Part shown: piece by piece, positions 14,716-36,448 of the stretch | How positions within the stretch are numbered: position 1 is the stretch's first letter | Layout of the letters: each line of letters starts with the position of its first letter | Made by a program: the position numbers and the translations under genes | Source of the DNA: Sulfurimonas sp. | Lineage (GTDB): Bacteria > Campylobacterota > Campylobacteria > Campylobacterales > Sulfurimonadaceae | NCBI GenBank assembly: GCA_027013295.1 | Contig: JALUXP010000043.1 | Span: forward strand, 12,101 to 76,100 | DNA length: 64,000 bases | Reading direction: 5' to 3' | The notes under the pieces: generated by a model | Databases searched by the model: none | What the model saw: the letters and a program-made list of their open reading frames with translations, nothing else | What the model was told of the DNA's origin: nothing

Positions 14716-14781
14716 ATTGAAAAAAATTGTTTTAAAGCTATTTAGATATAATTTCAAAATTATAAATATGAAGGTATAGAT

Positions 14782-15675: not shown

Positions 15676-15676
15676 C

Positions 15677-16462: not shown

Positions 16463-16476
16463 ATAAAGAGGTTTTT

Positions 16477-18089: not shown

Positions 18090-18769
18090 ATAATTTAGAA
18101 TATAAAATATATATTGACGATGTAATTCGCAGAGTTGAGAAAGCTCGTGTCAAAGTGAGTGCACATCATATAGTTAAGATAGTAGCTGTGAGTAAATACT
18201 CTACAAGTGATGAGATAGAAAAACTCTACAACATAGGACAACGAGCTTTTGGTGAAAACAAAGTTCAAGACCTTAAACTCAAGTCAAAAGAGCTTGAAGC
18301 GTTACCACTAGAATGGCACTTTATTGGTAATCTTCAAAAGAACAAGATAAACAATCTTTTAGATATCAACCCTACCCTCTTTCATGGACTTGACTCTCTT
18401 GAACTTGCACGAGAACTTCAAAAAAAACTTCTCTTGCGAGATATGACTTTAGATGCTCTCTTGCAGATAAACTCTGCAGATGAAGCAACAAAGAGTGGTG
18501 TAAGTATAGCTGATGCACTCAGTGTTTATGAACAAATAACTCAAGAATGCCCAAATATCAATCTTCGCGGTGTCATGAGCATCGGTGCACACTCTGATGA
18601 TAAAACGCTCATCAAAGAGAGCTTTATCAAAACTCACAATATCTATACGCAACTCAAAAATGCAGACATTTGTTCTATGGGTATGAGTGGAGATTTTGAA
18701 CTTGCTATCGAGTGTGGCTCAAATATGGTAAGACTCGGTTCCATTGTATTTCCTAAAGAGACAACTTAA
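18086..18769 (+). CDS. yggS: YggS-family pyridoxal-phosphate homeostasis protein
   Basis: 227 aa with 'VAVSKY' (PLP Lys), 'FGENKVQD', 'WHFIGNLQKNK' and 'SMGMSGDFE'. Confidence 0.85.
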   Translation: MNNLEYKIYIDDVIRRVEKARVKVSAHHIVKIVAVSKYSTSDEIEKLYNIGQRAFGENKVQDLKLKSKELEALPLEWHFIGNLQKNKINNLLDINPTLFHGLDSLELARELQKKLLLRDMTLDALLQINSADEATKSGVSIADALSVYEQITQECPNINLRGVMSIGAHSDDKTLIKESFIKTHNIYTQLKNADICSMGMSGDFELAIECGSNMVRLGSIVFPKETT

Positions 18770-18774
18770 AATCA

Positions 18775-21700
18775 CTACATATTTAGCTCAACTGCTTCAA
18801 ACTCATCATCAAGATTTTTCTTAAATCTATAGTATTTGATATAATCTGGTTTAGAGTATGTTGGTTCAGGTGTTACAAATACTATGCCAAACCCTTTTGA
18901 ATTTGCAAACTCTCTGAGGCGTTCTTGATTTGCACTATGTAGACGCGAGACTTCATCTACTATGAGAAAAAATGGCGTATCATCCTCCTTGACAAAGAGC
19001 TTGAGGATGGAGATGGCTATAGCGATTTTGAGGAGGATGCTCCCCCCTGTTGAACTTTCATTTTTGAGTTGTGCTACTTGGCTGACATGTTTTCCATTTT
19101 CATTGAAAGAAAGGCTCAAGTCTAAGGTATCACGCAGAGAGATAGCACTTCCTTTAAGTTCCCCTTTTATCATTGCAAACTTATCTTCAAGAGAGTCAAG
19201 CTCGTCCATCACATCTTTTTTATCATAAAAAAGAGAGCCTTCACTAAGTAATGAGCTAAGGTTAGATACATTTGCTTCTAAATCTTTAAGTATCCTAGCT
19301 ATAGACTTTTTATCTGTCGTTTTTGTATCGATACGAATATCTTTGATAACCCCAAAATCAACTTTTGAAAGATTTTTATTGATTTTTGCCACTTGAGTAA
19401 AAAATTTATCCTCAGAATCAGAAAAAATGGACATTTTTGTTGGTAGTAGGTTGTTGACAAAATTCACAAAGTCTTTATGTCCATTCTCTTTAACTATCTC
19501 TAAAGTTTTGTTCTTAAACTCTACTATCTCATCTATCTTTGTTAAAATATTTGGTGCTAGAGATATAAAAAAGTCATTTTCTAACTCCTCTATCTTGAAG
19601 TTAATATCTATCTCACCTTGGATGTTTTTGAGGATGTTTATTCTGTTGAGCATCGAGCCTAGTTTTGTTTTTTTCGCTTCATAGGTGATAAGTTTTTTAT
19701 CATACTTAGAGAGTACATCATCCAAAAACTCATCACTTTGTTTTGATGCAACATCCTCTAAGTCAAGCTCCATCTCATCATAACGAGATAAACCCTCATC
19801 ATAATTTTTTATCTTTAAAGTTATCTCTTTTTTCTCTAACACTAAATCTTTTTCATTTTGAGATAAGACTTTGATTTTAAGTTCAAGTTTGTCTTTAAAC
19901 TCTTTAGTTTTAAACCGAACTCTCTCAAGCTTCACAACAAGCTTATCTAAAGAGGTGATTTTAGATTCTACTTTTGCATATTCACTCAGATATTCAATTG
20001 CCCTATCACTAAGTCTTAACTCTTCATGTTTATTTCTCAACTCCACTTCAAGATGCACTATCTGCTCATCTTGTGTCGTTTCAAATTTCTTTGCTTCTTT
20101 GATCCGTATCTTTGCATCGAGAGATTTTCTCTCCTCATTGAGCCATCTTTGAATATTTTCTTTTAAAATAAAAAGATTTTTTTCATAACTTGAGTGGAGT
20201 GTATTTATATATTGTTTTGAATTTGTTTTTTCTTTTTCCATACTTTGATGCAGAGCATCTATACTATTTTGGCACTCTTCACTCTCAATACTCAACTTTT
20301 CAAGAAGTTTATTTTGTTGTGCATCATCCTCTTTATACTGAGCATTGGTATCCATCGTTTGACTTAAAAAGATCTTTTGTACCTCTATGAGTTTTTGCTC
20401 ACTCTCTTTTATAGCAACAAGCTTTAACTCTATCTCTTTTTCATTGAGTTGTATTTTAAGTTCTAGCTCTCTTGAATCATCTTCAAACTTCACTTTGAGG
20501 GTTTTGATGCTCTGCTTATACACCTCCTCCGCCATTTTGAGTTTGTTTTGCACAAGTTCTATCTCTATCTCTGCTTCATCACGAGTGAGTATCTTTTTAA
20601 GCTTATCATAGGAAATAGATATCCCAAAAAGCTTACTTGCTTCATGCAAAGAAGGGTTTAATTCTTTGACATCCATCTCTAAAAGTTTTGTATCGAGGAT
20701 GGGAAAAAGCTCACTCTCCCAGCCATCTACCTCTTCATTGAGGTACTCTTTAAACGAACCCTCTTTGGAGTAAATCATACTCTCAAAGGTTTCTATCTGC
20801 GAAGACAACCTTTGTTTTTCTTCTTCAAATTCCTCATCTTTTACCCGCATATCTCGGTTAAGTTTGTATCGTAAGTTTTCTACACTATTTGCTATGTTTT
20901 TGTTTTCAAACTCAAACTTACTTATGGTTTGATTCGCCAAAGAGACAGACTCTTCTTCTTTGAGTATATCTGCATCCTTTTGGAGTTTAAGTACCCTTAG
21001 GTCATCACTGAGTTTAGTATTTAAGCGTTCTTTTTCTTTTTTTATTGCTTGAGATTTTTGTTCCTTAGAGATGATATTTTGTTTATGCAGGGCTATCTCA
21101 TGATCCATCTTTTCTACAAAGAGTTTTAACTCTAGTTCACTTTTGTTAGTAGCTGATTCTAACTCATTTTTAAATAAAATCTTCTGATTAAACTCCTTGT
21201 CTTCCGCCTCACGAGCAAGCTCTTTATCGCGTCTATACTCAAGAGTTTTGATCTCTTTTTCTATGTTTTGGAGAGCATCTTCAAAACCAGATTTAAGTTT
21301 TACATAACTACTATTAAGTGCATCTAAACTCTCTTTTATCTCTGTATATCTATCTGCTAAATCTTTATTTTTTAAGATATTTTGACTTGAAAATTTCTCT
21401 TTTAGTCGTGATATCTCTTCTATATCTAAACTTAAAGAGTTCATAAGTTTGGTTGATTTATCTTGATAGCATCTGAGTTTTTTTTCTATCGACCTTTTAG
21501 TTTCTTTAACCCTATCTTGCTCTTTGAGTATCACCCCATCTCTTTTGAGTGCAAGACTTAATAACTCTTCTTCTTTTGGGTACAGATACTTTATCTTCTC
21601 TTTGAGGTGATGCACAGAACTCTCTAGCTCTAAAAGTTCCCCTTTTAAAACATAAGATGCATCTATGGAGCTTTTCTGTCTTTCAAACTCTCTAAAAAAT

Positions 21701-22350
21701 TTATATTTTGATTGAAAATCATATATTTTTTGCAAATACTCATCATAATTAAAGTCAATAACTTCTTTTTCAACATCAAGTGTTGTCTGGATCGCTTTTT
21801 TGATACTTTTAGAATCGATGATAGATTTATCTATATTAAATATCTCATTAAAAAGCCCTATAAAAATATCGCTATTTTTTATCTTAGTGAAGCAAAAATC
21901 ACTATATTTGCTATCGTGTCCATAGATAATATTCCTATATTCACTTAAAGATTTTACTGTTTTTTTAAGGTTTGGCTCTTTTGTGTATCTTTTTATCTCT
22001 GAGAGTTCTGAGAGGTTTCCATCGCTATCTACTATGCGTGTTTTATCAAAGGTTTGTTTTGAAAAAAGTTTTACTATCTCTCCACTGGCTTTATACATCA
22101 AGATGAAAAAATCATCAAACACATAGATCATATAGGAATTTTGATATCTAAAATAATACTCTTTAAAGCCATCTTTATCTGTTGGGATGCCTAGGTTTCG
22201 CACATCTCCACTAAAGAGATAGTGTATCGCACGGATAACAGTTGTTTTTCCACTTCCATTGTCCCCCAGAAAGAACAAGTCTTTTGACATATCGACTTCA
22301 AGGTAATTAAAATTTGCACTATTTATGAGTATGATTTTCTTTAAGTTCAT
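18775..22350 (-). CDS. SMC-like ABC ATPase with long coiled coil (JetC/MksB-like candidate)
   Basis: 1191 aa. Walker A 'GDNGSGKTT' at residues 29-37, then hundreds of K/E/L-rich coiled-coil-like residues. C-terminal signature-like 'SSTGGS' and Walker B/D-loop 'FFLIVDEVSRL'. RBS GGAGGG lies inside the upstream gene's end. Confidence 0.7.
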   Translation of the reverse strand: MNLKKIILINSANFNYLEVDMSKDLFFLGDNGSGKTTVIRAIHYLFSGDVRNLGIPTDKDGFKEYYFRYQNSYMIYVFDDFFILMYKASGEIVKLFSKQTFDKTRIVDSDGNLSELSEIKRYTKEPNLKKTVKSLSEYRNIIYGHDSKYSDFCFTKIKNSDIFIGLFNEIFNIDKSIIDSKSIKKAIQTTLDVEKEVIDFNYDEYLQKIYDFQSKYKFFREFERQKSSIDASYVLKGELLELESSVHHLKEKIKYLYPKEEELLSLALKRDGVILKEQDRVKETKRSIEKKLRCYQDKSTKLMNSLSLDIEEISRLKEKFSSQNILKNKDLADRYTEIKESLDALNSSYVKLKSGFEDALQNIEKEIKTLEYRRDKELAREAEDKEFNQKILFKNELESATNKSELELKLFVEKMDHEIALHKQNIISKEQKSQAIKKEKERLNTKLSDDLRVLKLQKDADILKEEESVSLANQTISKFEFENKNIANSVENLRYKLNRDMRVKDEEFEEEKQRLSSQIETFESMIYSKEGSFKEYLNEEVDGWESELFPILDTKLLEMDVKELNPSLHEASKLFGISISYDKLKKILTRDEAEIEIELVQNKLKMAEEVYKQSIKTLKVKFEDDSRELELKIQLNEKEIELKLVAIKESEQKLIEVQKIFLSQTMDTNAQYKEDDAQQNKLLEKLSIESEECQNSIDALHQSMEKEKTNSKQYINTLHSSYEKNLFILKENIQRWLNEERKSLDAKIRIKEAKKFETTQDEQIVHLEVELRNKHEELRLSDRAIEYLSEYAKVESKITSLDKLVVKLERVRFKTKEFKDKLELKIKVLSQNEKDLVLEKKEITLKIKNYDEGLSRYDEMELDLEDVASKQSDEFLDDVLSKYDKKLITYEAKKTKLGSMLNRINILKNIQGEIDINFKIEELENDFFISLAPNILTKIDEIVEFKNKTLEIVKENGHKDFVNFVNNLLPTKMSIFSDSEDKFFTQVAKINKNLSKVDFGVIKDIRIDTKTTDKKSIARILKDLEANVSNLSSLLSEGSLFYDKKDVMDELDSLEDKFAMIKGELKGSAISLRDTLDLSLSFNENGKHVSQVAQLKNESSTGGSILLKIAIAISILKLFVKEDDTPFFLIVDEVSRLHSANQERLREFANSKGFGIVFVTPEPTYSKPDYIKYYRFKKNLDDEFEAVELNM

Positions 22351-22354
22351 TGTC

Positions 22355-22888
22355 CTATCCCTCCACTACGCTTTGTACTATTTTTGTATAGTATTCTAAG
22401 CTGTTAAGTACCAAATATTCATCTTTTGAGTCGCTATTTTTAAGCTCAAAAAGATTATGTTTTGTGAGCAAGTCAAAAAACTTCTCCACTGCATCAAGGA
22501 GATCTTTGGTGTTGAAAAGATACTCAAGTTTTTGCTCAAAAGAGACATCATCTTTTTGTTTGAGAAGGTGGGTAAAGTCAGTTTGTTTGATGATGTCTCC
22601 CCTATCTACATAGGGATAAAGTTGTTTGAGTAGAGCTATAGCTATGAAGATATTTTTATGTGTGTTCATAAAAGCACTTACCTCTGTGTCACCGAGTTTC
22701 TCTTTTTTACTGATGAAGAAATATCCGTTTTCACCCACAAGAGTAAAACCTAGCTTTTTGAGTATCTCACTCAGCTCATCATAGTTTTCATCTATCATCA
22801 AAAACTTTGCTTCATTAAGATACTTTTGTGAATTTATACTCACCATGATGCCCTTACTAAGGACTTTAAAAACTTCATCTATTCCCAT
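22355..22888 (-). CDS. Hypothetical small protein, KITE-position (JetB/MksE-like candidate)
   Basis: 177 aa. Sits between a mid-sized protein and the SMC-like ATPase with a 10-nt overlap upstream and a 4-nt gap downstream. The call rests on position and size; no diagnostic motif was readable. Confidence 0.4.
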   Translation of the reverse strand: MGIDEVFKVLSKGIMVSINSQKYLNEAKFLMIDENYDELSEILKKLGFTLVGENGYFFISKKEKLGDTEVSAFMNTHKNIFIAIALLKQLYPYVDRGDIIKQTDFTHLLKQKDDVSFEQKLEYLFNTKDLLDAVEKFFDLLTKHNLFELKNSDSKDEYLVLNSLEYYTKIVQSVVEG

Positions 22889-23973
22889 TTTGCTACCTTT
22901 ATACCAAACTCATTAAACTCATCTTGAAAATGCAATTTTTCATGCGTAGTGATTTGCAAGTAAAGTTTAAACGCTTCTTCTTTTAATTTTAGCCCTTCAT
23001 ATATGGTCAACTCTTTATGATTGTGGATATATACAAAGATATCATCGCATTTTGTTGCATCTAAACCTTTGAGTATATCTTCTATGTTGATGATGTCCAA
23101 TTTTTGTGTTTGCTGAGGCTTTATGGTCGAAGACTTTATCTTCTTTTTCACTTCAAAACCATCTAAGAGAACTTTAGCAGCCTTATTGACCTTGTAAATA
23201 TCTCTATCGCTTGGATAAGTGATCACTCTATGTCTTTGATTTTTAACGATGGTATGATAGAGATGTTTTTTATGTAAAAGTAAGTATTCATCAAGCTCTT
23301 GTGTTTTTTCATCTAAGATTTGGTTTGCGAGTTTTGAGAGTTTTTTATTTTGGAGGCGTCTGTTTTTTGTCTGAATCAAAAAGGCACTTATCTGTTTGAT
23401 GTAACTTTCTATATTTTGAATATATTTTAAAATATCTACACTTATGCTTGAGAGTAGTGCATCTACTTCTGCATCTATATCTCGAAGATCTTCACGAAAA
23501 AGTTTCCCTATTTTTGTATTTGCTTCTATGAGTTCATCAATTTTTTCAAGTATATCATTTGCATTTTGTATCAGTATATCTATATCTAGTGAGGTGTCAT
23601 TTTCAACTCGTAGGAGAAGTACTTGTATCTCACGGTCACGGTTAAAAAACTTAAAAAATAGACTCTCTATGAGATCAATGAGCTGGTTTTTGTAGTGCTC
23701 ATTTTTGTTTTCTAAAAAGCGATTTTTATTTTTGACAAGCTCTTTGTACTCTTTTTCATAATCCCCAAAGATGATGCTGTAATCCACCCTTTGCAAGACT
23801 GAATCGACAAAGTTCAGATAGTTTTTGTTAAGTTTGTAAGTACCACTTATCTTTATAAAAAGTGAAGAGTCACTAAGCTCCTCTTCAACAGAGTCTATAC
23901 TACCATCACGATATACTCTATCTATGAGTTCTTTATTGTCATGAACAAGTTTTAAGAGTTCTAAGTGTTTCAT
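22879..23973 (-). CDS. Hypothetical protein, kleisin-position (JetA/MksF-like candidate)
   Basis: 364 aa, largely helical. ATGA overlap with the methyltransferase stop. The call rests on operon position ahead of the small protein and the SMC-like ATPase. Confidence 0.35.
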   Translation of the reverse strand: MKHLELLKLVHDNKELIDRVYRDGSIDSVEEELSDSSLFIKISGTYKLNKNYLNFVDSVLQRVDYSIIFGDYEKEYKELVKNKNRFLENKNEHYKNQLIDLIESLFFKFFNRDREIQVLLLRVENDTSLDIDILIQNANDILEKIDELIEANTKIGKLFREDLRDIDAEVDALLSSISVDILKYIQNIESYIKQISAFLIQTKNRRLQNKKLSKLANQILDEKTQELDEYLLLHKKHLYHTIVKNQRHRVITYPSDRDIYKVNKAAKVLLDGFEVKKKIKSSTIKPQQTQKLDIINIEDILKGLDATKCDDIFVYIHNHKELTIYEGLKLKEEAFKLYLQITTHEKLHFQDEFNEFGIKVAKWE

Positions 23974-26900
23974 CTGTTCGTACTCTCTTGTATAAGTTGT
24001 ATCTCTTTTGGACTTAAGTCATAAAGTTTATAAACTAGAGCATCTATCTCATCTTCTAAATGTTGTGTCTCTTCTTTTTTCTCTTTTAGTTTTATGATTT
24101 TATCTACTAAGGTTTCAAATGGTTTTGTATCTTCATGAGAATATATAGGTATCTTCATAAATTGATTTTTATCAATTTGAAGTAATTCTCCAGTATGTTT
24201 CAACCTCTCGCTCATATAAAAATAGATTAATGTTGAGTTAAGAAGTGCTGTCATATACTTTAAATTAATTCTTGATGATTTTATAAAAAATAGATTTCTC
24301 GAACCATAAAAAGCTTTTTCAGTATATGCAAAATCACCTTTTCTACTTCTAGAAGCAAAAATAATTTTAGCCCCATCTTTAAAAAACTCTTCATTTCTTT
24401 CTCTATGTAAATAATAGTAAGGCTTATTTGGTGTTTTGTAACTTATTTTCTTTTCTATTAAAAGTTTTTTATTTGCTTTAAAATAATCTTTAATATTAAA
24501 AAAATTATTGATATTTTTATCGCTAAAGTTATTTTTATGAATATAGATTATATATTTATCGCTATCCTTTGTAAAATACTTATGTGTATTTGTATGAAGC
24601 ATTTTAATATACTCTTTTTCTTCTATATTAAATTTATTCAACTCATTCTTTTTAACTATAAAAGCTTTATCGGGTGCTCCTATTATTCCTTGAATAATCT
24701 CTTTTTTTGCATCAAATTCAAAATTCTTTTTATTATCAATTTTTGTTAAAATAATTTCATTTTCTAAAGATGAAAAAGTTAGATTATGACTTGCATCATA
24801 ATTTTTATCTATGCTTTTCACTTCAAATTTTAAATTATAGTTTTCTAATTTTTTCTTAATTTTTTCAATACTTTGTTGTTCAAATTTTATATACTTTATA
24901 TTATGCGTTTTATTGTTTTTATTTTTTGTAGCTAAGAACATCATCGTTTGAACATCAGCATTTTCAAATATTAAGTTTGAACCGAAGTCTATGATATACT
25001 TCAATTCTGTATTTTTATATAGTGATGCTCTCATTTTAGATGCTGATGCACTACTAAACCATTGATTTTTCGCTATAAAAGACACGCTTGCATTTTCTTT
25101 TAAAAGCTCTATAGCTTTGCAAGTAAATATATGCCAGATATCTGTTTTGCCTTGATAACAATCCAGCTGATGCAATCCTTCAAAAGCCTGTTTGTTTTCA
25201 TCTTCCATAATATACGGCGGATTCCCTATAATCAAATCAAACCCACCCCTATCCATAACCTCTTTGAAGAACATTTTATATAAAAATATTTTATTTGAAT
25301 AGTGATTTTTATACATATCATGCAAAATATTTACTATGAGGTTAGCTGTTTTTGCTTCTTGCATCTCTTGCTTTGTTACGCCAATGAGTCCAAGTTGCTT
25401 TGAATACTTTTTTAGACCCTCATCAAAAAGAGTTTTTAAATTGAGATTTATCTTTGTTCTGAGTCCATCTTTTTTATGTTTATTGTGTTCATCATAATAT
25501 TGGCGAAACTGTTCATCGAGTTTCTTAAGAGTCTCAACTCTAATTTGCTCAGCTTTTGAACCTTTTTTTCTCTCTTTCATCAGGTCAAAACCATTAGCAG
25601 TCTCTATCAAACTATTGCCAACCATAATCTTATAAAAAAGGTTTGGTAATGGCTTTGGCTCTACTTCATCTACTACGATGCTCAGCCAAAACCTAAGTTT
25701 TGCGATCTCTACTGCACTCTCCTCTATGTCTATGCCGTAGATGTTGTTTTCTATAATCTCTCTTTTCATTTGAGAGAGCGGTGTAGTATCCCCTAAAACT
25801 AACCTTGCATCTACTATCTCGTGCAAAACTCCCATAGGAAACGCACCAGAACCGATGGCTGGATCTAAAACCTTTATGGCTCTAAGCTTGGATTTCATGA
25901 TATCTTTTAGTTTATCTTGGGATAGTGTTGAGTTATTAAGTAGCTTATTGATAGTTTGGTTGTAGTAGTCTTTATCTCTTAAAAATGCTTTTAATGTAAA
26001 GTTTGTTATACTATTGATCTTAAAAGAGTTGTGAAACGCGGAAAGTCCTTTTTGGACAACTGCTTGCCGCGGAAGCTCTCCTTCATCTTGAAGTGGTTCT
26101 GCATAGAGGGAACGGCAGTCCTCTCTCAACTCTTTTATATCTTCATAAACATCACCATTAAATACAAAATTATCCTTCGAGATATCCTCAAATGAGTTAG
26201 AGAGCTTTTTTAACTTCTTTTGTATGTTTTTATATCTCATTGGAAATATTGTCGTTAACTCTAAATCACCCCAAATATTTGGAAGAAAAGCTAATGCAAA
26301 GTATTGCTCATCAATCTGTATATACTTAAGTATTGTTGGATATTTATATGATTTTTTTAACCGTATCTCTTTACTTGAGCCAAAACTAACCCCGATTGGC
26401 TTATACTCTTTTTTTAAAATTTTACTCCATATTTGAGCCGTGACCTCAGGATGACCTTTTGAATGCACTTGTTTTTTTGTTCTAGTTCCATCACTATTTA
26501 GGAGCAAACCTCTCAACTTGGTCACCATATAAAAATCAACAACTAAACTCTTATATGGCAACATTAAAGTAAAATAATTTTCAATTTTTATAAATTTTAT
26601 GGGATGCTTTTCATAAAAATTTAAAATTTCACTATCGCTTAGAGTGGTCTTTTCTAAAAATTCCTCTGTATTAAAAAGATAACTGTACTCTTTTAGCTCA
26701 CTCTCAAGATGGTTATGTATAGATCTCTTTGCCATAAAATGAACTATCTCTCGTGGGGTATAAAAAGCACCTTTTTCCTTTCTATCTTCAAGGAGATCTT
26801 CAAAAACACGGCCTAACATTTCAGGGTCTATAGCTACTTCGCTCTCATGAGGAGTGTCCTCTATGATGGTAAAGTTATAACTACTAAAGGTATCAAATAT

Positions 26901-27845
26901 ATTTTTAAAAACCTCATTACTAAGCATCACAACTGGGTTTTGCTTAGAGTCTTCATCAAATTTACTTGGAGTAAAAAGTCCACCATTTAGAAACGGTATC
27001 TTACATTCCAAAGGTTTAAAATAATCATTTTCTCTAGCACTATTTAATGCTCTGAAAAATAAAGGGTTGAGTATGTCCCCATAAAAATCATTGGCGTTGT
27101 CATAGGAAGTGTACTCATGATAAAGTTTGTTTAAAAACTCTCTGTCCCCATCACCCCACTCTTTTTTTGAGCCTAACCAACCTTTTTTTTGCAAAAAATA
27201 CAAAAAAACGATGCGACCTAAAAGCTTTTTAGCAAATAGCCTCAAGTGAGCATCACTACCATAGAACAAAGCAATCTCAGGCTTTAGCGTTTCCATCAAA
27301 TCAAAATAAAGTTTTTTATACTCATCAAAAAACTTATTAGAGACTCTCTCAACCGAGAAAATATCTTGCAAATCTTTTATGGTTCTTGCACTGGGTAATT
27401 GCCCCAACTGCTCAAGTGCAGTTTTTTGAACTATATTTTTACCGATCTCAAAGGTATATCTTTGTGGTTTTGTTTTGAGCTCTTTTTTGTTTGCATCTGT
27501 AAATTCTATATTTACAAATGACAATCTCCATGTATCACTTTTTGGGTGAAAAATAGCCACTATTGCACCATCAAACGAGTATTTAGCTGGAACAAGCGAA
27601 GATATAAACTTGTTAAATCCAACTCTAACATAATCTATATTTTTATTTTTAGCTTCAAAGATAAAAAAGTCTATACTATCTTTGTGCAACTTAGTATAAG
27701 CTACTCTTTGATATGATGAGATATACTTGTCATTCTCTACTTCATGAAGTGTCGCATCCACAAAAGTAGCGTTTAAACTCTCTTTTATAAACGAGATAAA
27801 ATTAGATTTATTGAAATTTTGATTTATTATATTTTCTAACTTCAT
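23970..27845 (-). CDS. Large gamma-class N6-adenine DNA methyltransferase (Eco57I/PglX/DrmMI-like)
   Basis: 1291 aa. 'GAFYTPREIV' (aa 359-368), 'VLDPAIGSGAFP' (aa 659-670), 'VGNSL' (aa 742-746) and 'IIGNPPYI' (aa 872-879; NPPY at nt 25212-25223). Helical 'LLGRIVFLYFLQKKGWLG'. C-terminal 'VYKLYDLSPKEIQLIQE' is typical of the family. Confidence 0.85.
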   Translation of the reverse strand: MKLENIINQNFNKSNFISFIKESLNATFVDATLHEVENDKYISSYQRVAYTKLHKDSIDFFIFEAKNKNIDYVRVGFNKFISSLVPAKYSFDGAIVAIFHPKSDTWRLSFVNIEFTDANKKELKTKPQRYTFEIGKNIVQKTALEQLGQLPSARTIKDLQDIFSVERVSNKFFDEYKKLYFDLMETLKPEIALFYGSDAHLRLFAKKLLGRIVFLYFLQKKGWLGSKKEWGDGDREFLNKLYHEYTSYDNANDFYGDILNPLFFRALNSARENDYFKPLECKIPFLNGGLFTPSKFDEDSKQNPVVMLSNEVFKNIFDTFSSYNFTIIEDTPHESEVAIDPEMLGRVFEDLLEDRKEKGAFYTPREIVHFMAKRSIHNHLESELKEYSYLFNTEEFLEKTTLSDSEILNFYEKHPIKFIKIENYFTLMLPYKSLVVDFYMVTKLRGLLLNSDGTRTKKQVHSKGHPEVTAQIWSKILKKEYKPIGVSFGSSKEIRLKKSYKYPTILKYIQIDEQYFALAFLPNIWGDLELTTIFPMRYKNIQKKLKKLSNSFEDISKDNFVFNGDVYEDIKELREDCRSLYAEPLQDEGELPRQAVVQKGLSAFHNSFKINSITNFTLKAFLRDKDYYNQTINKLLNNSTLSQDKLKDIMKSKLRAIKVLDPAIGSGAFPMGVLHEIVDARLVLGDTTPLSQMKREIIENNIYGIDIEESAVEIAKLRFWLSIVVDEVEPKPLPNLFYKIMVGNSLIETANGFDLMKERKKGSKAEQIRVETLKKLDEQFRQYYDEHNKHKKDGLRTKINLNLKTLFDEGLKKYSKQLGLIGVTKQEMQEAKTANLIVNILHDMYKNHYSNKIFLYKMFFKEVMDRGGFDLIIGNPPYIMEDENKQAFEGLHQLDCYQGKTDIWHIFTCKAIELLKENASVSFIAKNQWFSSASASKMRASLYKNTELKYIIDFGSNLIFENADVQTMMFLATKNKNNKTHNIKYIKFEQQSIEKIKKKLENYNLKFEVKSIDKNYDASHNLTFSSLENEIILTKIDNKKNFEFDAKKEIIQGIIGAPDKAFIVKKNELNKFNIEEKEYIKMLHTNTHKYFTKDSDKYIIYIHKNNFSDKNINNFFNIKDYFKANKKLLIEKKISYKTPNKPYYYLHRERNEEFFKDGAKIIFASRSRKGDFAYTEKAFYGSRNLFFIKSSRINLKYMTALLNSTLIYFYMSERLKHTGELLQIDKNQFMKIPIYSHEDTKPFETLVDKIIKLKEKKEETQHLEDEIDALVYKLYDLSPKEIQLIQESTNR

Positions 27846-30800
27846 CTAAACCTCTTGAAATTTTACAGATAAGATATTTTTTATTTTATCTATATTTAGA
27901 TTATTTTGATCTGTTTTTTGTCTATTTCCTATTTTATCTTTTATTATTTCCTCTATATTCTCATCATTGGATCTCAATATATCAGAACTTAGAGTTGAAA
28001 ACACTCCATCCTCCATAAGCTCTATCGCCTCATCAAGCATAGCATCACTGAGTATATCTTTTTTATTGTAATTTCTAAGCTTTATTTTTGCTTTATTGTC
28101 GTTAAGAGATGCTTGATTGTCCCCTTTTGTTTTTTTCATTGCATCTAGTGCATCTTGATATTTTCGCATATTTTTAGAGATAGCATCATCTATATTTGTA
28201 TTATCCATTCTCTTGAGGTCTTGACCTCTTAACGCCTTAGCCATCTCTAAAAAATCTATTTCAAAACTTTGTTTATCAAGCACTTTGTAAAATTTTCCCG
28301 TATGCTCATATTTTAGATATGAATATGTAGAGGCATCTCTCTTGGCATCATAGAAACTTAATTTAAGGTTGAATGGTAATCTCTTTATCTCTAGGTACTG
28401 CGTATAATGATGTTTTCTAAAATCTCTTATCTCCTGTAAAAAGAACAACTCTTCATCTAAAACTTCTCGTTCTTCATAAACATTAAATAAGCTTTTTGAA
28501 CCAACTTGTTCATCATTTGTATATATCTTATTATCTTCACCTAGCATATCATGAAAAGCTTGCAGTTTGTTAAAGGCATTGTTTGAGAGTTTTATAAGCT
28601 CTTCACTTTTAGCAACTGGCTTAAAGTTATAGACATCGTAACTCGTTTCACTCATTCCAATACGATTTATACGCCCTATTCTCTGCATCAGTTTTGTAGC
28701 ATTCCATGGAATATCGTAATTATAGATAATATTACTTCTATGGAGGTTTACACCCTCAGCAAGGGTATCTGTTGTCACAATGATGTTGTAATCATCTTTT
28801 TGATTTTCATAATTAGCATCAAAATTTTCTGCAATAGTTTCTAAAAGAAAATCTCGTGAACTTCCATCTACACACAAAAGTTTTTCTAACTTCAAATTAT
28901 CTTTCAAATACAATGCAGTATCTTTTGACTCGGTAAAGACTACTATTTTTTTACCCTTATGATCTGCTAGAATGGTTTTTAATTTTTCTATTTTTGGATC
29001 TTTATTTTCATCTACCCACTCAGACCAAAGTAGTTCTAAAAGTTTTAAATCCTCTTTGAGCAACTCTAAGTAATCATCATAAAAATCATCTTTATTGAAG
29101 ATATGCCCTTTTAACTTTCGCTTCTCTCTACTCTTTGCAAAATTAAGTTTCACTTCATACTCAATCTTATCATCAACTATTTGAAACTTACTATCATTGT
29201 CATCTAAAAATTCATTTGATCTATCACCGAGATAGATAATATCTTTCTCAAAATATTTTATAAACTTTTCTAATCTTTTTTTGTGCCTATAAAGGGAGAG
29301 TTTAAAGGCATAAAAGGAACTTTCAAACCTCTTGATGAGTAAAATTTGCATTAATTTTGCCAGTGGGTTATCATGAAATACATTGGCACTGATAGTTGGA
29401 TTTAAGCTTTTATATTTAAGCTTTCCCTTATCATTAAGCTGATTGAGTGCCTTAAATCTTGCATATTTCAAGGTACCAGAGATGAGATCTGCTGTTTTTT
29501 CATACTTTTTCGTGAGGGTATTATCCATCTCGTAATTACATTCTATTAACTCTGAGAGTTTTGGAAAGTTATCTATATCTTGTTTATACATTTTATGAGT
29601 TATTATATCTTCTCGGGTTCTTCTTATCATCACATGTTTCAATATGTCATTTTTTATAGCCTCTGATGGGTTAGAGACTGCATCAATGTTTGCTTTATCC
29701 ATCAAGAGATCAAACTCATCGGAGCGTTTTTTAAAATAGCTCTCCAAATCAGGAACAGTTCCAATGGTAGAATTTCTCCGCTCTTGGAACAGATAAAGTT
29801 GGTTTGCTATATCTTTTGGATGATTGTTTTGTGGTGTTGCTGAGAGTAGCATAACTTTTTTTTGTGATGGCAATTTACAGAGATTCTCAACCTCTTTATA
29901 TCTGGAGGTATCACTATTTCTAAATTTATGAGACTCATCTATGATAATAAACTTTTTATCTGTACTTTTTGGTATCTTACCTATAGATACTATCTCAAAA
30001 TTTTCTACACCAAACTCCACAAAAGCCTTTTTCCACTGTGGGATGATAGCTGGAGGGGAGATTACAAGTGTGCTGATATTGAGTTTTTTAACTATGAGTG
30101 TAGCTACTATTGTCTTTCCCAATCCAACTACATCTGATAGAAAGAAACCATTATGTTGATAAAGTTTATTGATACCATCATTGACCGCATCGCTTTGGTA
30201 TCTAAACTCTTTAAAATTTGCTGGGGTATGTTGCATATCCAATGAATAACTCTCAATTCTATCTCCAAAATAAGAGATTAAAAACTTCATATATATCTTA
30301 TCTAAGGTAAGTTCATATTGCTTTTGAACTTTCTTATTGATGTAAGGAAGTATATAGTGAGCAATATCTTTTTGAGTAAATTCTCTTGATTCATTCTCCC
30401 AAATATCATTAAATATCTTTACAGCTTCAACTATATCTTCACCTTGATTGAGCTCTATATTTATCTCCCTGTTTCCCTCACTACTAAGCCCATTATGTGT
30501 CAGATTAGATGAACCTGTTATCACTGAACCCATATAATTTATGGAGTCTTGCTTTTGTTTTGCTTTTGTTCTTAAGATATACATTTTTGCGTGTAAATTA
30601 TTGCGATTGAAAATCCTCATCTCTATCTGAGATGACAACAGTTTTTGCGATAAAATATCTATGTAGGTGCTATCTAAATTCGTACTATTTAGTATCTCTA
30701 TCTGCTCATTTGAAAACTCTTGTTTTATTTTTTTATAATTGTCATACGCCTCAAATACTGAGTCATCAATATCTATCCCTACTAAAATTTTAAGTTTTTT

Positions 30801-30959
30801 TACATGAGACAAAGTATCAATGATCTTATTAAAACCACTGATTCTAAAATATCCTATCATAAATTCTAAATATTCTATATACTCATCATCTAAAATATCG
30901 TTGAGCCTTTTTTCTAGACTATCTGTTTTGTCTTTATTTGTAAAAAATTTTGAACTCAT
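27846..30959 (-). CDS. PLD-like nuclease domain fused to SNF2-family helicase
   Basis: 1037 aa. N-terminal single HKD-type motif 'LHAKMYIL...GSVITGSSNLTHNG' (H123/K125). Helicase motifs 'DVVGLGKT' (I), 'IIIDESHKFRN' (II), 'LLSATPQNN' (III) and 'QRIGRINRIG' (VI). Confidence 0.85.
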   Translation of the reverse strand: MSSKFFTNKDKTDSLEKRLNDILDDEYIEYLEFMIGYFRISGFNKIIDTLSHVKKLKILVGIDIDDSVFEAYDNYKKIKQEFSNEQIEILNSTNLDSTYIDILSQKLLSSQIEMRIFNRNNLHAKMYILRTKAKQKQDSINYMGSVITGSSNLTHNGLSSEGNREINIELNQGEDIVEAVKIFNDIWENESREFTQKDIAHYILPYINKKVQKQYELTLDKIYMKFLISYFGDRIESYSLDMQHTPANFKEFRYQSDAVNDGINKLYQHNGFFLSDVVGLGKTIVATLIVKKLNISTLVISPPAIIPQWKKAFVEFGVENFEIVSIGKIPKSTDKKFIIIDESHKFRNSDTSRYKEVENLCKLPSQKKVMLLSATPQNNHPKDIANQLYLFQERRNSTIGTVPDLESYFKKRSDEFDLLMDKANIDAVSNPSEAIKNDILKHVMIRRTREDIITHKMYKQDIDNFPKLSELIECNYEMDNTLTKKYEKTADLISGTLKYARFKALNQLNDKGKLKYKSLNPTISANVFHDNPLAKLMQILLIKRFESSFYAFKLSLYRHKKRLEKFIKYFEKDIIYLGDRSNEFLDDNDSKFQIVDDKIEYEVKLNFAKSREKRKLKGHIFNKDDFYDDYLELLKEDLKLLELLWSEWVDENKDPKIEKLKTILADHKGKKIVVFTESKDTALYLKDNLKLEKLLCVDGSSRDFLLETIAENFDANYENQKDDYNIIVTTDTLAEGVNLHRSNIIYNYDIPWNATKLMQRIGRINRIGMSETSYDVYNFKPVAKSEELIKLSNNAFNKLQAFHDMLGEDNKIYTNDEQVGSKSLFNVYEEREVLDEELFFLQEIRDFRKHHYTQYLEIKRLPFNLKLSFYDAKRDASTYSYLKYEHTGKFYKVLDKQSFEIDFLEMAKALRGQDLKRMDNTNIDDAISKNMRKYQDALDAMKKTKGDNQASLNDNKAKIKLRNYNKKDILSDAMLDEAIELMEDGVFSTLSSDILRSNDENIEEIIKDKIGNRQKTDQNNLNIDKIKNILSVKFQEV

Positions 30960-31729
30960 CTACAAACCTCTTGTTCAACTACGGTGTTATACTTTTTTAT
31001 GATACCAAGTATCACTTTAACTCTTACATCATAACTTGGTTTTAGATTTTTTATCTGCTTTTTATAGAGATTGGTATTTTGATATTTTTCAAAAAGCTCT
31101 TCAATATTTTTTGGTATAAAAAATGACTTTTCCTTACATTTAAAACTCTCAAAAATATTCATACCCTCTATATCAAAATCTAAAAAAAACTCCACTTTTT
31201 TATCTTTTAAAAATTCTATTGTCAGGGAGTTTGAATATCCACCTAGGTATATAAAGCTATCATATTTAAATTGTGATGCTATGGTCTCTATATTTAAAAA
31301 ACTCTCGCCATTTTCTACAGCTACCAATCCCTCTACATCCTTAAAGTTTTGCAAATCTTTATTTTGCAAAAGTTGGGCAACTTCACCAGCTTTTTTCAAC
31401 ACAACTACATTGTCAAATACTCGAACATAGTTTGTCTTAGAATCACCACTGTATTTGATGTTATCTTCTCGTGTATCAGCACGCACAATTTTTTTTACAT
31501 CATCAAAGCATCTCACTTTTTTGCCATTTAAAAGTTCACTTGATACAAATTCAAAAAACAATTCCAAGTCCTCAATACTTGCTTTTTGTCCTCTCTTTGC
31601 ACTAAAAAAATAGCAACTATTGTCCTCTTGATACTTCACAATCATCTCGTTTAAATCCCGAACTATACTAAAGACAGGCTGTGTCTTTTCAAATCGTAAA
31701 ACTTGATTGAGAAGTTTTTTATGTATCAT
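30956..31729 (-). CDS. Toprim-fold protein resembling the JetD/MksG C-terminal (DUF2220) domain
   Basis: 257 aa with 'VAVENGESFLNI ... IYLGGYSN ... FFLDFDIEGMNIFE' (E ... GG ... DxD pattern). ATG directly follows the dnaE stop; ATGA overlap with the helicase gene. Confidence 0.55.
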   Translation of the reverse strand: MIHKKLLNQVLRFEKTQPVFSIVRDLNEMIVKYQEDNSCYFFSAKRGQKASIEDLELFFEFVSSELLNGKKVRCFDDVKKIVRADTREDNIKYSGDSKTNYVRVFDNVVVLKKAGEVAQLLQNKDLQNFKDVEGLVAVENGESFLNIETIASQFKYDSFIYLGGYSNSLTIEFLKDKKVEFFLDFDIEGMNIFESFKCKEKSFFIPKNIEELFEKYQNTNLYKKQIKNLKPSYDVRVKVILGIIKKYNTVVEQEVCR

Positions 31730-34700
31730 TTATAATATATCCACATTAACATTACCATCAAGGGCTTGGATGATGGAGGAGTTTACTCTTATGCCTGAGT
31801 TTATCACTACATTTTGCAGTTTAGAAGTGATAATGAGTTTGAGTTCGCGTCCCCCCGGATGTTGTCGGATGAGAGTGTAAAGCTCTTCAAGTATCTGTGT
31901 ACTTTCATCAAGTTTTATAGAGAGGGAGAGTGGTCCTTGTGGTATCTCTCTTACCTCTTTTTTGACTTTTTTCGTCTCTTTTGCAGCTTCTCTTAAAGTC
32001 ATAATCTTTGTAACACCTATGCGAGTGAACATCTCGGTATGTGTTATCTTAGCCTTAAAAGCGATGGGTTCATCAGTATTCATCTCTTTGAGTTGCTCTA
32101 ACTTATCTGAAAAAAGCATAATCTCTACATTGCCATGAAAGTCCATAAGGTTGACTATGGCAAACTGGTTGCCTTTTTTGCTTATCTTTGTCTCAATACT
32201 CTCGACTTTTCCTATGAAGACCACAAAACTATCATCTTTGACACCCTCTATCTCAGAGGAAAGTGTATAGTTTAACTCACCTATCTTTTCTCGGTACTCA
32301 TCAAGCGGATGCCCACTTACATAGAACCCTAAAGTATCCTTTTCAAACTCTAAAATCTCTTTAAGTCCATACTCCTCTGAGTTATTAAGCACCAACTCTA
32401 CTGTTGTGATCTCTTCATCATCCCCAAAGAGACTTCCCACTGCATTTTTCTTTGCTTCACTCGCTTTTTTTGCAGTATCGACTATGAGTTCTATCTGATC
32501 TAAGAGTGCTTTTCTTGAGTATCCAAACCTATCAAACCCCCCTGCTTTGACAGCGGATTCTATCACACGCTTGTTGACTTTTGATGGCTCAATTCTGTTG
32601 ACAAAATCTTGCAAAGAGAGATACTCACCATTTACCTCTCTCTCTTTGAGCATTGCCTCAATTGCTGCTCCACCGACCCCTTTTATAGCACCAAGACCAA
32701 AAAGAATGGTCTCCTGTCCATCTTTGTTTATCGCTGAAAATTCTAACTGTGAGTCACTAATATCTGGAGGGCTAAGCTCTATCCCCATCCGCTTTACTTC
32801 ATCTATGTAACGGACAACTTTATCTGTGTTGTCCTTATCTGAAGTAAGTAAAGCTGCCATAAACTCATTTGGATAGTAAGTTTTTAACCATGCTGTCTGA
32901 AAGGTTACCATCGCATACGCAGCGGAGTGAGACTTGTTGAAACCATACCCAGCAAACTTCTCAATAAGGTCAAAGAGTGCAGAAGCTAACTTATAGTCAA
33001 GCCCAAGTTTTTGTGCACCTTCTGAAAAAAGTTTATTATATTTCTCCATCTCTTCAACTTTTTTCTTACCCATAGCTCGACGGACAATATCTGCTCCACC
33101 AAGACTCATACCACCTATGATCTGAACTATCTGCATAACCTGTTCTTGATAAACAATCATCCCATAAGTTGGACCAAGCGTATCTTTTAGGAGGTCAAAA
33201 CTTACCTCTTCAAAAGGATAAAATACTTTTTTACGCCCATGCTTACGCTCAATAAAATCATCCAGCATTCCTGATTCCATCGGACCTGGTCTGTAGAGTG
33301 CTAAAACCGCAATCAAATCCTCAAAACTATCTGGCTTTAAACGCTTGTTCAAGTCTTGCATACCAGAGGACTCTATCTGAAACATCCCCACCGTATCACC
33401 CGTTTGTATCACTTCGTATACTTTAGGGTCATTTTCATCTATCTTGTGCCAATCAATATCTTTATCATAACGACGCTTTATCAGCTTTGTAGCATTTTGA
33501 ATAACATCGAGTGTTTTCAGTCCAAGGAAGTCAAACTTGATAAGGTCAACATCTTCAAGATAGTTGAGTGAATACTGAGTGACAAAGGTATCTTCACCTG
33601 CTGGCTTGTAGATGGGTGTTTTTTTCCATAACTCTTCATTTGAGATCACTACTCCCGCAGCATGGATGCCAGAATTTCGCTTCAAACCCTCAAGTTTTTT
33701 AGCAAATTCCCACACTCGTTTTGCAGAAGGGTCACTCTCAACCAACTCAACAAGCTTTGGTTCTTTTTGGTAAGCACCATCTATGTACTCACCTCTTTTC
33801 TCTTTCCCATTGAGTGTGATACCAAGTTCATCTGGAATCAGTTTTGCCATTTTGTCAGCCTGAGAGAGTGGCATATCAAGCACTCGAGCCACATCACGGA
33901 TCACTCCTTTTGCCAGAAGTGACCCAAAAGTGATGATCTGTGCAACTTGATTTCGTCCATACTTTTTAACTACATAGTCTATAACCTCGCCACGACGAGC
34001 CTGCATAAAGTCCATATCGATATCTGGCATACTTACTCGTTCAGGATTTAAAAAACGCTCAAATAGTAGGTCATATTTCAGGGGGTCTATATCGGTGATA
34101 TCGAGAGAGTAAGCTACTAAACTCCCTGCAGCTGAACCTCGACCAGGACCAACAGCAATATCCATCTCTTTTGCCACTTTCACAAAATCCCAAACTATCA
34201 TCATATATCCAGGAAATTTCATAGAGTTGATGATATCCATCTCAAACTCTAATCGCTCTTTATACTCTTCATGTCTCTCTTGTGGGACAATTTTTAGTCG
34301 CTTTTGTAAACCTTCTCTACATTTATAAACAAAATAAGCGGCATCATTTTTATCGGCACAAAGCATATGCTTTTTCTTTTGTTCTTCACTTGCATCTGAT
34401 GGAAGAGGAGGATCATCTTGAAAGTCAATATCTAAGCCCTCCTCTTTTGCATACTCTAAAGTAAACTTAAAGTTTGGAGGTGTTGGAGTTTTTACAACTG
34501 GTACGAACTCTTCTATCTTATCTACTATCTCTTGTGTGTGGGTTATCGCTTCTGGAATATCTGCAAAAAGTAAGGCCATCTGCTCGGGTGACTTGAGATA
34601 AAACTCATGTACGGAGTGACGCATACGATTTGGGTCATCAAAGAGCTTATTCATCCCGATACACATAAATGCTTCATGATACTGAGCATCATTTTCAAAT

Positions 34701-35356
34701 GTATAGTGTGTATCGTTTGTTGCAACAACTTTTATATCTAACTCTTTTGAGATTTTGAGTATCTGCTCATCTATAAAAAGCTGATCCCCTATCCCATGAC
34801 GCATAAGCTCTAAGTAGAAGTCATCCCCAAAGATATCTTTGTACTCCTGAGCAACTGCTAATGCACCATTGTATCCTAAGGCTCCATTTTTTACATTTCG
34901 CTCATTTTGAAGGTTTAAGTGCCAGTTAACTTCCCCTTGCAAACAAGCTGAACTACAGATGATGCCCTCGCTATGTTCACGGAGTTCATTTTTATTGATA
35001 CGAGGGAAGTAGTACATTCCCTCGATAAATGCTTTAGAAGAGAGATACATGAGGTTTTCATAGCCTATCTTATTTTTCGCAAATAAACAGATATGAAATC
35101 TTTGTTTGGTTGATTTATCGTCAAGGGTCTCACCATTGTGGATATAACCCTCCATCCCAATGATAGGTTTGATGTCCGCCGCTTTCATCTGATGGTAAAA
35201 ATCAATAGCACCAAACATATTTCCATGGTCAGTCATCGCCACCGAAGTCATACCTAATTTTTTAACTTGTTTGACTAAATTTGTTAGTTTATTTGCTCCA
35301 TCTAGGAGGGAGTATTCTGTATGTAAATGTAAGTGAGTAAATGGTTGTACGCTCAT
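31730..35356 (-). CDS. dnaE: DNA polymerase III alpha subunit
   Basis: 1208 aa. PHP N-terminus 'FTHLHLHTEYSLLDG', 'MTDHGNMFG', palm 'MPDIDMDF', 'GLLKMDFLGL'-type 'IKFDFLGLKTL', and an OB fold near the C-terminus. Confidence 0.95.
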   Translation of the reverse strand: MSVQPFTHLHLHTEYSLLDGANKLTNLVKQVKKLGMTSVAMTDHGNMFGAIDFYHQMKAADIKPIIGMEGYIHNGETLDDKSTKQRFHICLFAKNKIGYENLMYLSSKAFIEGMYYFPRINKNELREHSEGIICSSACLQGEVNWHLNLQNERNVKNGALGYNGALAVAQEYKDIFGDDFYLELMRHGIGDQLFIDEQILKISKELDIKVVATNDTHYTFENDAQYHEAFMCIGMNKLFDDPNRMRHSVHEFYLKSPEQMALLFADIPEAITHTQEIVDKIEEFVPVVKTPTPPNFKFTLEYAKEEGLDIDFQDDPPLPSDASEEQKKKHMLCADKNDAAYFVYKCREGLQKRLKIVPQERHEEYKERLEFEMDIINSMKFPGYMMIVWDFVKVAKEMDIAVGPGRGSAAGSLVAYSLDITDIDPLKYDLLFERFLNPERVSMPDIDMDFMQARRGEVIDYVVKKYGRNQVAQIITFGSLLAKGVIRDVARVLDMPLSQADKMAKLIPDELGITLNGKEKRGEYIDGAYQKEPKLVELVESDPSAKRVWEFAKKLEGLKRNSGIHAAGVVISNEELWKKTPIYKPAGEDTFVTQYSLNYLEDVDLIKFDFLGLKTLDVIQNATKLIKRRYDKDIDWHKIDENDPKVYEVIQTGDTVGMFQIESSGMQDLNKRLKPDSFEDLIAVLALYRPGPMESGMLDDFIERKHGRKKVFYPFEEVSFDLLKDTLGPTYGMIVYQEQVMQIVQIIGGMSLGGADIVRRAMGKKKVEEMEKYNKLFSEGAQKLGLDYKLASALFDLIEKFAGYGFNKSHSAAYAMVTFQTAWLKTYYPNEFMAALLTSDKDNTDKVVRYIDEVKRMGIELSPPDISDSQLEFSAINKDGQETILFGLGAIKGVGGAAIEAMLKEREVNGEYLSLQDFVNRIEPSKVNKRVIESAVKAGGFDRFGYSRKALLDQIELIVDTAKKASEAKKNAVGSLFGDDEEITTVELVLNNSEEYGLKEILEFEKDTLGFYVSGHPLDEYREKIGELNYTLSSEIEGVKDDSFVVFIGKVESIETKISKKGNQFAIVNLMDFHGNVEIMLFSDKLEQLKEMNTDEPIAFKAKITHTEMFTRIGVTKIMTLREAAKETKKVKKEVREIPQGPLSLSIKLDESTQILEELYTLIRQHPGGRELKLIITSKLQNVVINSGIRVNSSIIQALDGNVNVDIL

Positions 35357-35445
35357 AAAAGTTGCCTAAAATAATATTTTAATTATTATAGTGCAACTAT
35401 GCTAACTTTATCTTTATAGTCTTACAAAAAGAATTTATTTCAACT

Positions 35446-35526
35446 CGTTCCTATCGTCCCCGATGGGAATGCATACCACTAAAATAATTCATAAAGTATG
35501 CGTTCCAAAGCTGGAGCTTAGGAACG
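35446..35526. other. GC-enriched nested inverted-repeat element (possible structured RNA or REP-like element)
   Basis: Outer arms cgttccta(35446-35453)/taggaacg(35519-35526). Inner arms ggaatgcatac(35466-35476)/gtatgcgttcc(35496-35506) give 11 bp with one G-U. The hexamer cgttcc/ggaacg occurs three times. Confidence 0.5.
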
Positions 35527-35550
35527 AAGAAGGTTTTTGCTACTTTAAAG

Positions 35551-36088: not shown

Positions 36089-36113
36089 TTTTACTCCTCA
36101 AATTCATTACTCT

Positions 36114-36441: not shown

Positions 36442-36448
36442 AATAGGT

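Follow-up and report, generated by a model that had tools for sequence, protein, structure and literature searches.

Systems of the Wadjet/MksBEFG class combine a kleisin-like subunit (A), a KITE subunit (B), an ATPase resembling the structural maintenance of chromosomes (SMC) proteins (C) and a Toprim nuclease (D), which are encoded by translationally coupled genes in the canonical order A-B-C-D. Embedding, that is, the insertion of a defense system between the operon genes of another one in the same orientation, is known from Hma, BREX, DISARM and Type I restriction-modification (R-M) hosts, and Wadjet is listed there only among the systems with ABC ATPases (Payne et al. 2024; bioRxiv 10.1101/2024.01.29.577857). 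Here, we describe a 13-kb block (positions 18775-31729) within a 64,000-nucleotide (nt) stretch of a Sulfurimonas sp. genome (GenBank assembly GCA_027013295.1, contig JALUXP010000043.1; this whole stretch is hereafter the window). Its six genes, numbered 1 to 6 in the order of transcription, encode a Wadjet/Mks-like module (gene 1, D; gene 4, A; gene 5, B; gene 6, C) and, between D and A, a helicase with a phospholipase D (PLD) domain (gene 2) and a DNA methylase (gene 3). The block is probably an R-M-like cassette embedded in a resident Wadjet/Mks-like operon, and not an obligate six-protein machine.

The resident module resembles Wadjet in the predicted roles of its four subunits and in the translational coupling of its genes, but departs from it in several respects. 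Its genes follow the order D-A-B-C, both in the window and in the majority of related loci that carry D; the nuclease consists of only 257 amino acids (aa); the sequences have no PDB sequence matches or NCBIfam names; and the module is limited to Campylobacterota, is anchored by dnaE, the gene for the alpha subunit of DNA polymerase III, and carries nested cargo. As in the described cases of embedding, a complete or near-complete cassette is placed between operon genes in the same orientation, and the cargo is diverse across relatives; however, the host here is Wadjet/Mks-like and the guest is R-M-like, a reversal of the usual roles. To our knowledge, embedding has not been described so far for SMC-type systems.

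Boundaries of the cassette

The closest relative of the locus (L005; 97% aa identity in dnaE, 93% aa identity in gene 4, and about 90% nt identity) lacks genes 2 and 3. The blastn alignment of L005 with the window runs from 35424 to 30956 and then jumps to 23977-22860. In the window, the cassette is bounded by a direct repeat, AGATGA (30956-30961 and 23970-23975; 6,986 bp from repeat to repeat), which is the stop/start overlap itself and is present as a single copy in L005, where it joins gene 1 to gene 4. The cassette, with AGATGA at either end, is placed exactly at the D-A start/stop overlap, so that the genes on both sides remain translationally coupled to it. Either deletion between the two AGATGA copies or homologous recombination in the flanking genes, with replacement of the allele, would convert the four-gene and six-gene forms into each other and leave this coupling undisturbed. 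Such embedding would entail the co-transcription and co-inheritance of both modules.

Distribution of the resident operon and its junction cargo

Related loci were collected by scanning one genome per species and the metagenomes of the Joint Genome Institute (JGI) with a gene 4 profile, supplemented by targeted look-ups. After the removal of duplicates, 56 distinct loci, including the window, were retained, and the D-A junction was readable in 46 of these. The gene 4 family comprises 84 clusters, nearly all of which come from Sulfurimonas and other Campylobacterales; the scan of one genome per species, incomplete because it was pattern-based, yielded 25 module loci, all in Campylobacterota. 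At 40 of the 46 readable junctions, D and A are contiguous or overlap, with genes 5 and 6 next in line; in most of the related loci, including those of many Sulfurimonadaceae, the module has dnaE upstream, sometimes separated by zero or few intergenic bases. D-A-B-C, usually downstream of dnaE, is the native order of this lineage, so the original prediction, made from the window sequence, that the D-like gene had been moved to the front of the operon does not hold. Nor are the methylase and helicase an integral part of the operon, as had been surmised, given the 40 contiguous junctions, that of L005 among them.

A helicase and a methylase are found between D and A in 4 of the 46 loci (the window, L030/L031, L079 and L007). 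These nested copies represent two divergent cassette lineages, one in the window, L030/L031 and L079, and the other in L007. The L007 helicase is 41% identical to that of the window, compared with 73% identity to a clade of non-nested helicases and 59% to the helicase of a three-gene Nitratiruptor locus (see below); this greater closeness to non-nested helicases indicates a separate capture.

Other selfish or defense genes likewise accumulate at the D-A and A-B junctions of this operon family. Two of the 46 loci carry toxin-like genes at the D-A junction, namely, Fic with a helix-turn-helix (HTH) gene in L012/L055, where this cargo translationally overlaps the gene 1 stop, and HipA with an HTH gene in L043. 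At the A-B junction, there is a DUF1016/YhcG nuclease in L015 and a RES-Xre toxin-antitoxin pair, encoded on the opposite strand, in L022. A RhuM-family gene is located within the D-A gap in L007 and directly upstream of gene 4 in L010.

Genes 4-6 are kept and gene 1 is absent in six loci (L010/L040, L011, L020, L027/L058, L064 and L066); in these nuclease-less loci, RhuM, PIN, deaminase or DUF1016 genes replace or adjoin the missing gene, or else dnaE lies directly upstream. L025 (1560-7462) contains a decayed four-gene module, with gene 1 spread over three frames and genes 4 and 6 fragmented by frameshifts. In the most distant clade (35-37% identity in gene 4; L065, 1-2346; L067, 1-2602; L068, 1-2260), a gene 6-like 3' end lies directly upstream of gene 1, and gene 4 comes next, with no gene 5 or gene 6 after it; the operon order appears to be permuted (...C-D-A).

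Relatives of the cassette outside the SMC operon

Gene 2 has a very large number of homologues: among the 8,000 scored candidates, 5,782 clusters reach E <= 1e-30. Seven non-nested contexts were sampled, from Nitratiruptor, Nitrosophilus, Sulfurovum and metagenomic Campylobacterota. In six of these (L032, L033, L072, L073, L076 and L077), the helicase is followed by a methylase of the same type and then by an SMC_N/AAA_23 ABC ATPase of 457-700 aa, the start of which overlaps the methylase stop in most of these triads; the seventh context is a decayed locus. The first two triad genes (in Sulfurovum, Nitratiruptor, Nitrosophilus and others) are arranged in the same order as genes 2 and 3, with the same overlapping junctions, and show 40-53% identity to them. 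The triad-type ABC ATPase is absent from the window, L030, L079 and L007, where gene 4 occupies the corresponding position. A more distant pair of helicase and methylase, on a Prevotella nigrescens plasmid, has no co-oriented ATPase. We found no name for the helicase-methylase-ABC ATPase triad.

Judging from these sequence relationships, the guest is a predicted ATP-dependent R-M-like cassette from a widespread family, the usual form of which includes three genes, with an SMC_N-type ABC ATPase. It differs from the triads in that the third-gene ATPase is missing and the methylase contains an extra insertion of about 250 aa. The pair thus also exists on its own in numerous other genomes, where an ABC ATPase of its own usually accompanies it; this further argues against its being integral to the operon. 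The two halves of the block occur independently in most genomes, in agreement with one of the possibilities raised along with the original prediction, whereas the notion that they co-occur only here is contradicted by the three other nested loci. The depiction of the block as a unitary six-gene architecture that cannot be mapped to any named system was overstated; it is better described as a composite of two units.

Proteins of the cassette

Gene 2 encodes an SNF2 translocase with an N-terminal fusion to a single-HKD PLD domain (Pfam PLDc_2, SNF2-rel_dom and Helicase_C; PADLOC C3a139 'HKD+Snf2', 6.7e-41), and the motifs HxK...GSSN, GLGKT, DESH, SATP and QRIGRINR are kept in 11 homologues. The C3a139 model derives from a survey of type III CRISPR accessory genes (PMC6546367). 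The product of gene 2 is the putative restriction subunit. Gene 3 matches Pfam Eco57I (2.4e-33), MmeI_Mtase and TaqI_C, as well as the PADLOC model REase_MTase_IIG (1.2e-97); its product, which combines an Eco57I/MmeI-type N6-adenine methyltransferase with a TaqI_C-type target recognition domain (TRD), would provide modification and specificity. The Pfam and PADLOC matches bear out the earlier recognition of these two proteins as a PLD-SNF2 helicase and a methylase.

The N-terminus of gene 3 contains the sequence D..FEAK in the window; among nine aligned family members, the E position varies (V or L), as does the K position (L, S or T), and no nuclease Pfam domain was matched in gene 3. Given the lack of conservation of this D..ExK-like motif in the family, the separate PLD-SNF2 protein is the probable seat of the nuclease, in which case the system would be ATP-dependent and consist of two or three components. 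The TRDs of the window and L030 are 29% identical, compared with 78-87% identity in the rest of the methylase. The C-terminal third of gene 3 (23970-25170) is a mosaic TRD across L030, L007 and L076: the L030 TRD is 67% identical to that of L007, and the TRD of the window is closest (36%) to that of Nitrosophilus labii (L076). With the catalytic motifs of both its proteins intact and the TRD swapped between close relatives, the cassette looks like an autonomous, specificity-diversifying R-M component, which speaks against a functional coupling to the resident operon.

The insertion is located between FYTPREIVH and DPAIGSG (motifs X and I); in the alignment, the four nested methylases all contain it, and six triad methylases lack it. 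It is 59-67% identical among the nested copies, with the L079 methylase aligning across it, and is rare (16 representatives with E <= 1e-3 among 1.84 billion protein clusters). However, insertion-bearing methylases with a triad-type C-terminal tail were also found. In L077, a 50-codon fragment (14723-14872) that is 64% identical to the gene 3 insertion lies between the triad methylase and the ABC ATPase and may be a remnant of methylase allele exchange. Given the tail-bearing methylases and the L077 fragment, the insertion is not demonstrably Mks-specific, and the idea that it is exclusive to Mks-nested methylases is unsupported, distant insertion-bearing methylases being on record along with the remnant. 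We also rejected the possibility that the nested methylases have lost an ATPase-binding C-terminal tail: the presence of the tail goes with the type of TRD, and some insertion-bearing methylases possess it.

Several described systems share features with the cassette. Type IIG/IIL enzymes (Eco57I, MmeI) have in common with gene 3 the gamma-class N6A core (DPAIGSG...NPPY), the TaqI_C-type TRD, TRD swapping, and the placement of methyltransferase and TRD in one chain, but differ with respect to the N-terminal D..ExK-like motif, which is not conserved in the gene 3 family. Class 1 DISARM likewise involves an SNF2 helicase (DrmD-like), a PLD protein (DrmC-like) and a large N6A methylase (DrmMI-like), but here PLD and SNF2 are fused in one protein, and gene 2 scores far below the cutoff of the NCBIfam DrmD model (128 bits against 610). 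The PglX model gives 95 bits against a cutoff of 500, and on these NCBIfam scores we rejected the classification of the triad as DISARM or BREX. No DrmA/DrmB (DUF1998), PglZ or BrxC was detected in the six genes, in their immediate neighbors or in the larger window open reading frames (ORFs) scanned, in accord with the predicted lack of DISARM and BREX core genes. Hma (HmaABC) shows the same logic of helicase, methylase and ATPase and the same tendency to embed. The Hma proteins are characterized by the domains DUF3883/NOV_C, DUF1156 and DUF499 (PMC11232893). None of DUF3883, DUF1156 (in Hma, a system with a predicted 5-methylcytosine (m5C) methylase) and DUF499 is present here, and the PADLOC HmaA model matches only the generic helicase C-terminal region; assignment of the cassette or the triad to Hma was rejected. 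The DUF499-centered 'BREX-related' systems (PMC12839542) were rejected as unrelated.

Proteins of the resident module

Gene 1 matches Pfam DUF7281 (3.1e-8; 33.9 bits, cutoff 27), JetD_C marginally above the gathering score (6.5e-5; 22.8 bits, cutoff 22) and PADLOC JetD (1.1e-5). Its AlphaFold (AF2) model, built on an alignment of 26 homologues (predicted local distance difference test, pLDDT, 91), has topoisomerase VI-A (1.3e-5) and the Corynebacterium glutamicum MksG nuclease (8b7f; 1.3e-3) as the best PDB matches in Foldseek, and the Toprim residues E139, D184xD186 and E252-Q-E254 are invariant among the 26 homologues. Its product is a short JetD/MksG-like Toprim nuclease, with a topoisomerase VI-A-like fold in the model. 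For gene 4, no Pfam, PADLOC or NCBIfam family was matched, and the top two PDB matches of its AF2 model (pLDDT 75), MukF (9gm7_C; E 1e-3) and JetA (8q72_E; E 4e-3), are weak (template modeling score, TM, 0.22-0.26). In the related loci, gene 4 is always found directly upstream of the MksE gene; together, position and fold matches point to a putative kleisin-like (JetA/MksF/MukF-like) subunit.

Gene 5 matches Pfam MksE over its full length (3.1e-14; 54 bits, cutoff 27), with no match to the PADLOC JetB models, and is an MksE/JetB-type KITE subunit. Gene 6 is an SMC-like ABC ATPase of the MksB/JetC/MukB-like type: it contains Walker A, signature-like and Walker B motifs and a long coiled coil, and matches DUF3584, the JetC/MukB-like family, over residues 237-1150 (5.4e-12; 44.5 bits, cutoff 31), AAA_23 and SMC_N at the N-terminus, and PADLOC JetC (2.8e-7) over 50 N-terminal residues only. 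Taken together, genes 1, 4, 5 and 6 are a compact, very divergent Wadjet/MksBEFG-class module. The original prediction of a Wadjet/Mks-type set is substantiated by the MksE, DUF3584 and DUF7281/JetD_C matches and, in the case of gene 4, by the weak fold matches; the structural comparison that it called for indeed links the 364-aa protein to MukF and JetA, albeit weakly, and the 257-aa protein to topoisomerase VI-A and MksG.

Sequence searches of PDB chains with genes 1, 5 and 6 and with the gene 4 profile returned nothing meaningful, and in the NCBIfam scan none of the six proteins reached a cutoff. The PADLOC Wadjet models would not call the locus, and those for JetA and JetB fail to match it; PADLOC also gave weak matches to the MADS components mad2 and mad3. 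A literature search yielded nothing relevant on DUF7281 or on Wadjet with a methylase and SNF2.

By analogy with JetABCD and MksBEFG, the A-B-C complex would load on DNA and extrude loops, and would license cleavage of small circles of foreign DNA by the Toprim subunit. The methyltransferase-TRD protein of the guest would read its motif and mark host DNA with N6-methyladenine (m6A), whereas the PLD-SNF2 protein would translocate on unmarked DNA and cut it via the HKD domain, probably as a dimer.

Locus layout and surroundings

Direct reading of the sequence confirms the six minus-strand ORFs at 18775-31729, with the predicted coordinates and lengths (Table 1), and all the predicted junctions: an ATGA overlap between genes 1 and 2 (30956-30959), abutment of the gene 2 TAG with the gene 3 ATG (27843-27848), another ATGA overlap between genes 3 and 4 (23970-23973), a 10-nt overlap between genes 4 and 5 (22879-22888), and a 4-nt gap (22351-22354), preceded by GGAGGG, between genes 5 and 6. 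The motifs originally quoted are present in the translations, and those of the PLD and SNF2 domains are the ones kept in the gene 2 homologues. Overlooked, however, was dnaE, the TAA stop of which is joined to the gene 1 ATG with zero gap; counting dnaE, the tightly packed run consists of seven genes, the first of which is a housekeeping gene. This packing is not a chance ORF pattern because the same genes and overlaps recur in dozens of related loci.

Table 1 Features of the block and the adjoining dnaE gene, in window coordinates
Feature	Coordinates	Strand	Length	Remark
gene 1	30956..31729	-	257 aa	
gene 2	27846..30959	-	1037 aa	
gene 3	23970..27845	-	1291 aa	
gene 4	22879..23973	-	364 aa	
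gene 5	22355..22888	-	177 aa	
gene 6	18775..22350	-	1191 aa	
dnaE (DNA polymerase III alpha)	31730..35356	-	1208 aa	translation and Pfam annotation of orthologues
embedded helicase and methylase cassette	23974..30955	-		missing from closest relative L005
gene 3 insertion domain	25926..26663	-	~250 aa (aa ~395-640)	alignment

The block is flanked by housekeeping genes, on one side by those for peptidase M16, dapA, an enoyl-ACP-reductase-like (adh_short-family) protein, pgsA, rseP and yggS, and on the other side by dnaE, efp and PBP2. The guanine-plus-cytosine (GC) content is 0.30-0.34 in the six genes versus 0.36-0.41 in the housekeeping neighbors. A scan for promoters and terminators gave the same counts as shuffled controls and was uninformative.

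The series M16, dapA, adh_short-family gene, pgsA, rseP and yggS, which precedes the Mks module in the window (13408-18769), also precedes the stand-alone triad of N. labii (AP022826.1; L076, 2593-7979). This suggests a hot spot for defense genes just after yggS that is shared across Campylobacterota families. Between its helicase and methylase genes, the N. labii triad itself contains a gene for a YoeB/ParE-type toxin, preceded by a small ORF (L076, 11167-11642), another case of embedding, inside the R-M-like unit itself. In the window, the approximately 1-kb segment between efp and dnaE (~35424-36443), which is missing from L005, contains a 110-aa RelE-family toxin ORF on the minus strand (35551-36088; Pfam RelE, 8e-7), overlapped upstream by a 71-aa ORF, a possible antitoxin. 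A 511-aa SMC_N/AAA_23 protein encoded at 45298-46833 (minus strand) is most likely RecN and is unrelated to the block.

Alternative explanations

Several observations weigh against an independent guest and would fit, instead, an integrated hybrid, in which the helicase-methylase pair, having lost its dedicated ABC ATPase, relies on the kleisin/KITE/SMC complex as a substitute; the SMC loop-extruder would then be coupled to methylation-based marking of self and non-self, with PLD and Toprim as effectors. This is, in essence, the idea of the original prediction. The ABC ATPase is found in none of the four nested copies, compared with six of the seven sampled non-nested copies of the Campylobacterota type, and the methylase stop overlaps the start of the next gene in all four nested copies, as it does in triads. 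Furthermore, nesting recurs, with two divergent helicase lineages at the identical junction; host and cassette of the window, L030/L031 and L079 have diverged together, with the cassette kept intact (70-80% identity in gene 2, 82-83% in gene 4 and 75% in gene 6); and the rare insertion of about 250 aa is common to all four nested methylases. However, 40 of the 46 host modules, including the nearest relative, do without the pair, and the same junctions accommodate unrelated cargo (Fic, HipA, RES-Xre and DUF1016). Given that the Fic cargo is translationally overlapped as well, tight coupling is not evidence of joint function. Moreover, a helicase-methylase pair without a co-oriented ATPase exists elsewhere, on the Prevotella plasmid; the insertion occurs also in methylases with the triad-type tail and, as a remnant, in L077; and the sample sizes are small. 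We consider such a hybrid unlikely, although it deserves serious attention, and view with comparable doubt its specific form, in which the ATPase would have been swapped for the kleisin/KITE/SMC complex and Toprim in some Sulfurimonadaceae, with the methylase insertion as an adaptor.

A different view of the host is that it is mainly a housekeeping condensin of the MksBEF type, co-expressed with dnaE, and that the cargo exploits a well-expressed operon. The position directly after dnaE is indeed conserved in many species, six loci keep A-B-C without the nuclease gene, and neither PADLOC nor NCBIfam models call Wadjet. Yet, this appears improbable considering that the GC content is lower in the module (0.30-0.34) than in the housekeeping genes that flank it (0.36-0.41), that the L025 copy has decayed by frameshifts, that the Toprim catalytic residues are invariant wherever the gene is present, and that the locus attracts toxin-antitoxin and defense cargo, similarly to defense islands; the distribution of the module also looks patchy (25 loci, in an incomplete pattern-based scan of one genome per species). 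Finally, a coincidental joining of two unrelated systems, unique to this genome, which would account for the lack of the cassette in the closest relative, is refuted by the same nesting in L030/L031, L079 and L007, and we give it hardly any credence.

Implications

The resident operon adds a very divergent, Campylobacterota-restricted lineage to the Wadjet/Mks class, with a D-first gene order and a minimal 257-aa Toprim subunit, that current defense-finder models would miss. The embedding of an R-M-like cassette in such an operon extends 'guilt-by-embedding' to SMC-type defense systems, the junctions of which can be mined for new cargo. The locus also provides a natural presence/absence series, with four-gene and six-gene alleles at about 90% nt identity and exact AGATGA breakpoints, which makes the dependence of the ATPase-less R-M-like pair on the SMC module directly testable. 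If there is no such dependence, the locus is a case of ordinary, tidy defense-island nesting. If there is, loop extrusion would be linked to epigenetic self-recognition, and should the ATPase indeed have been swapped for the SMC complex, this would be the first SMC-coupled R-M system, in which the sensing of DNA topology or size is integrated with epigenetic self-marking.

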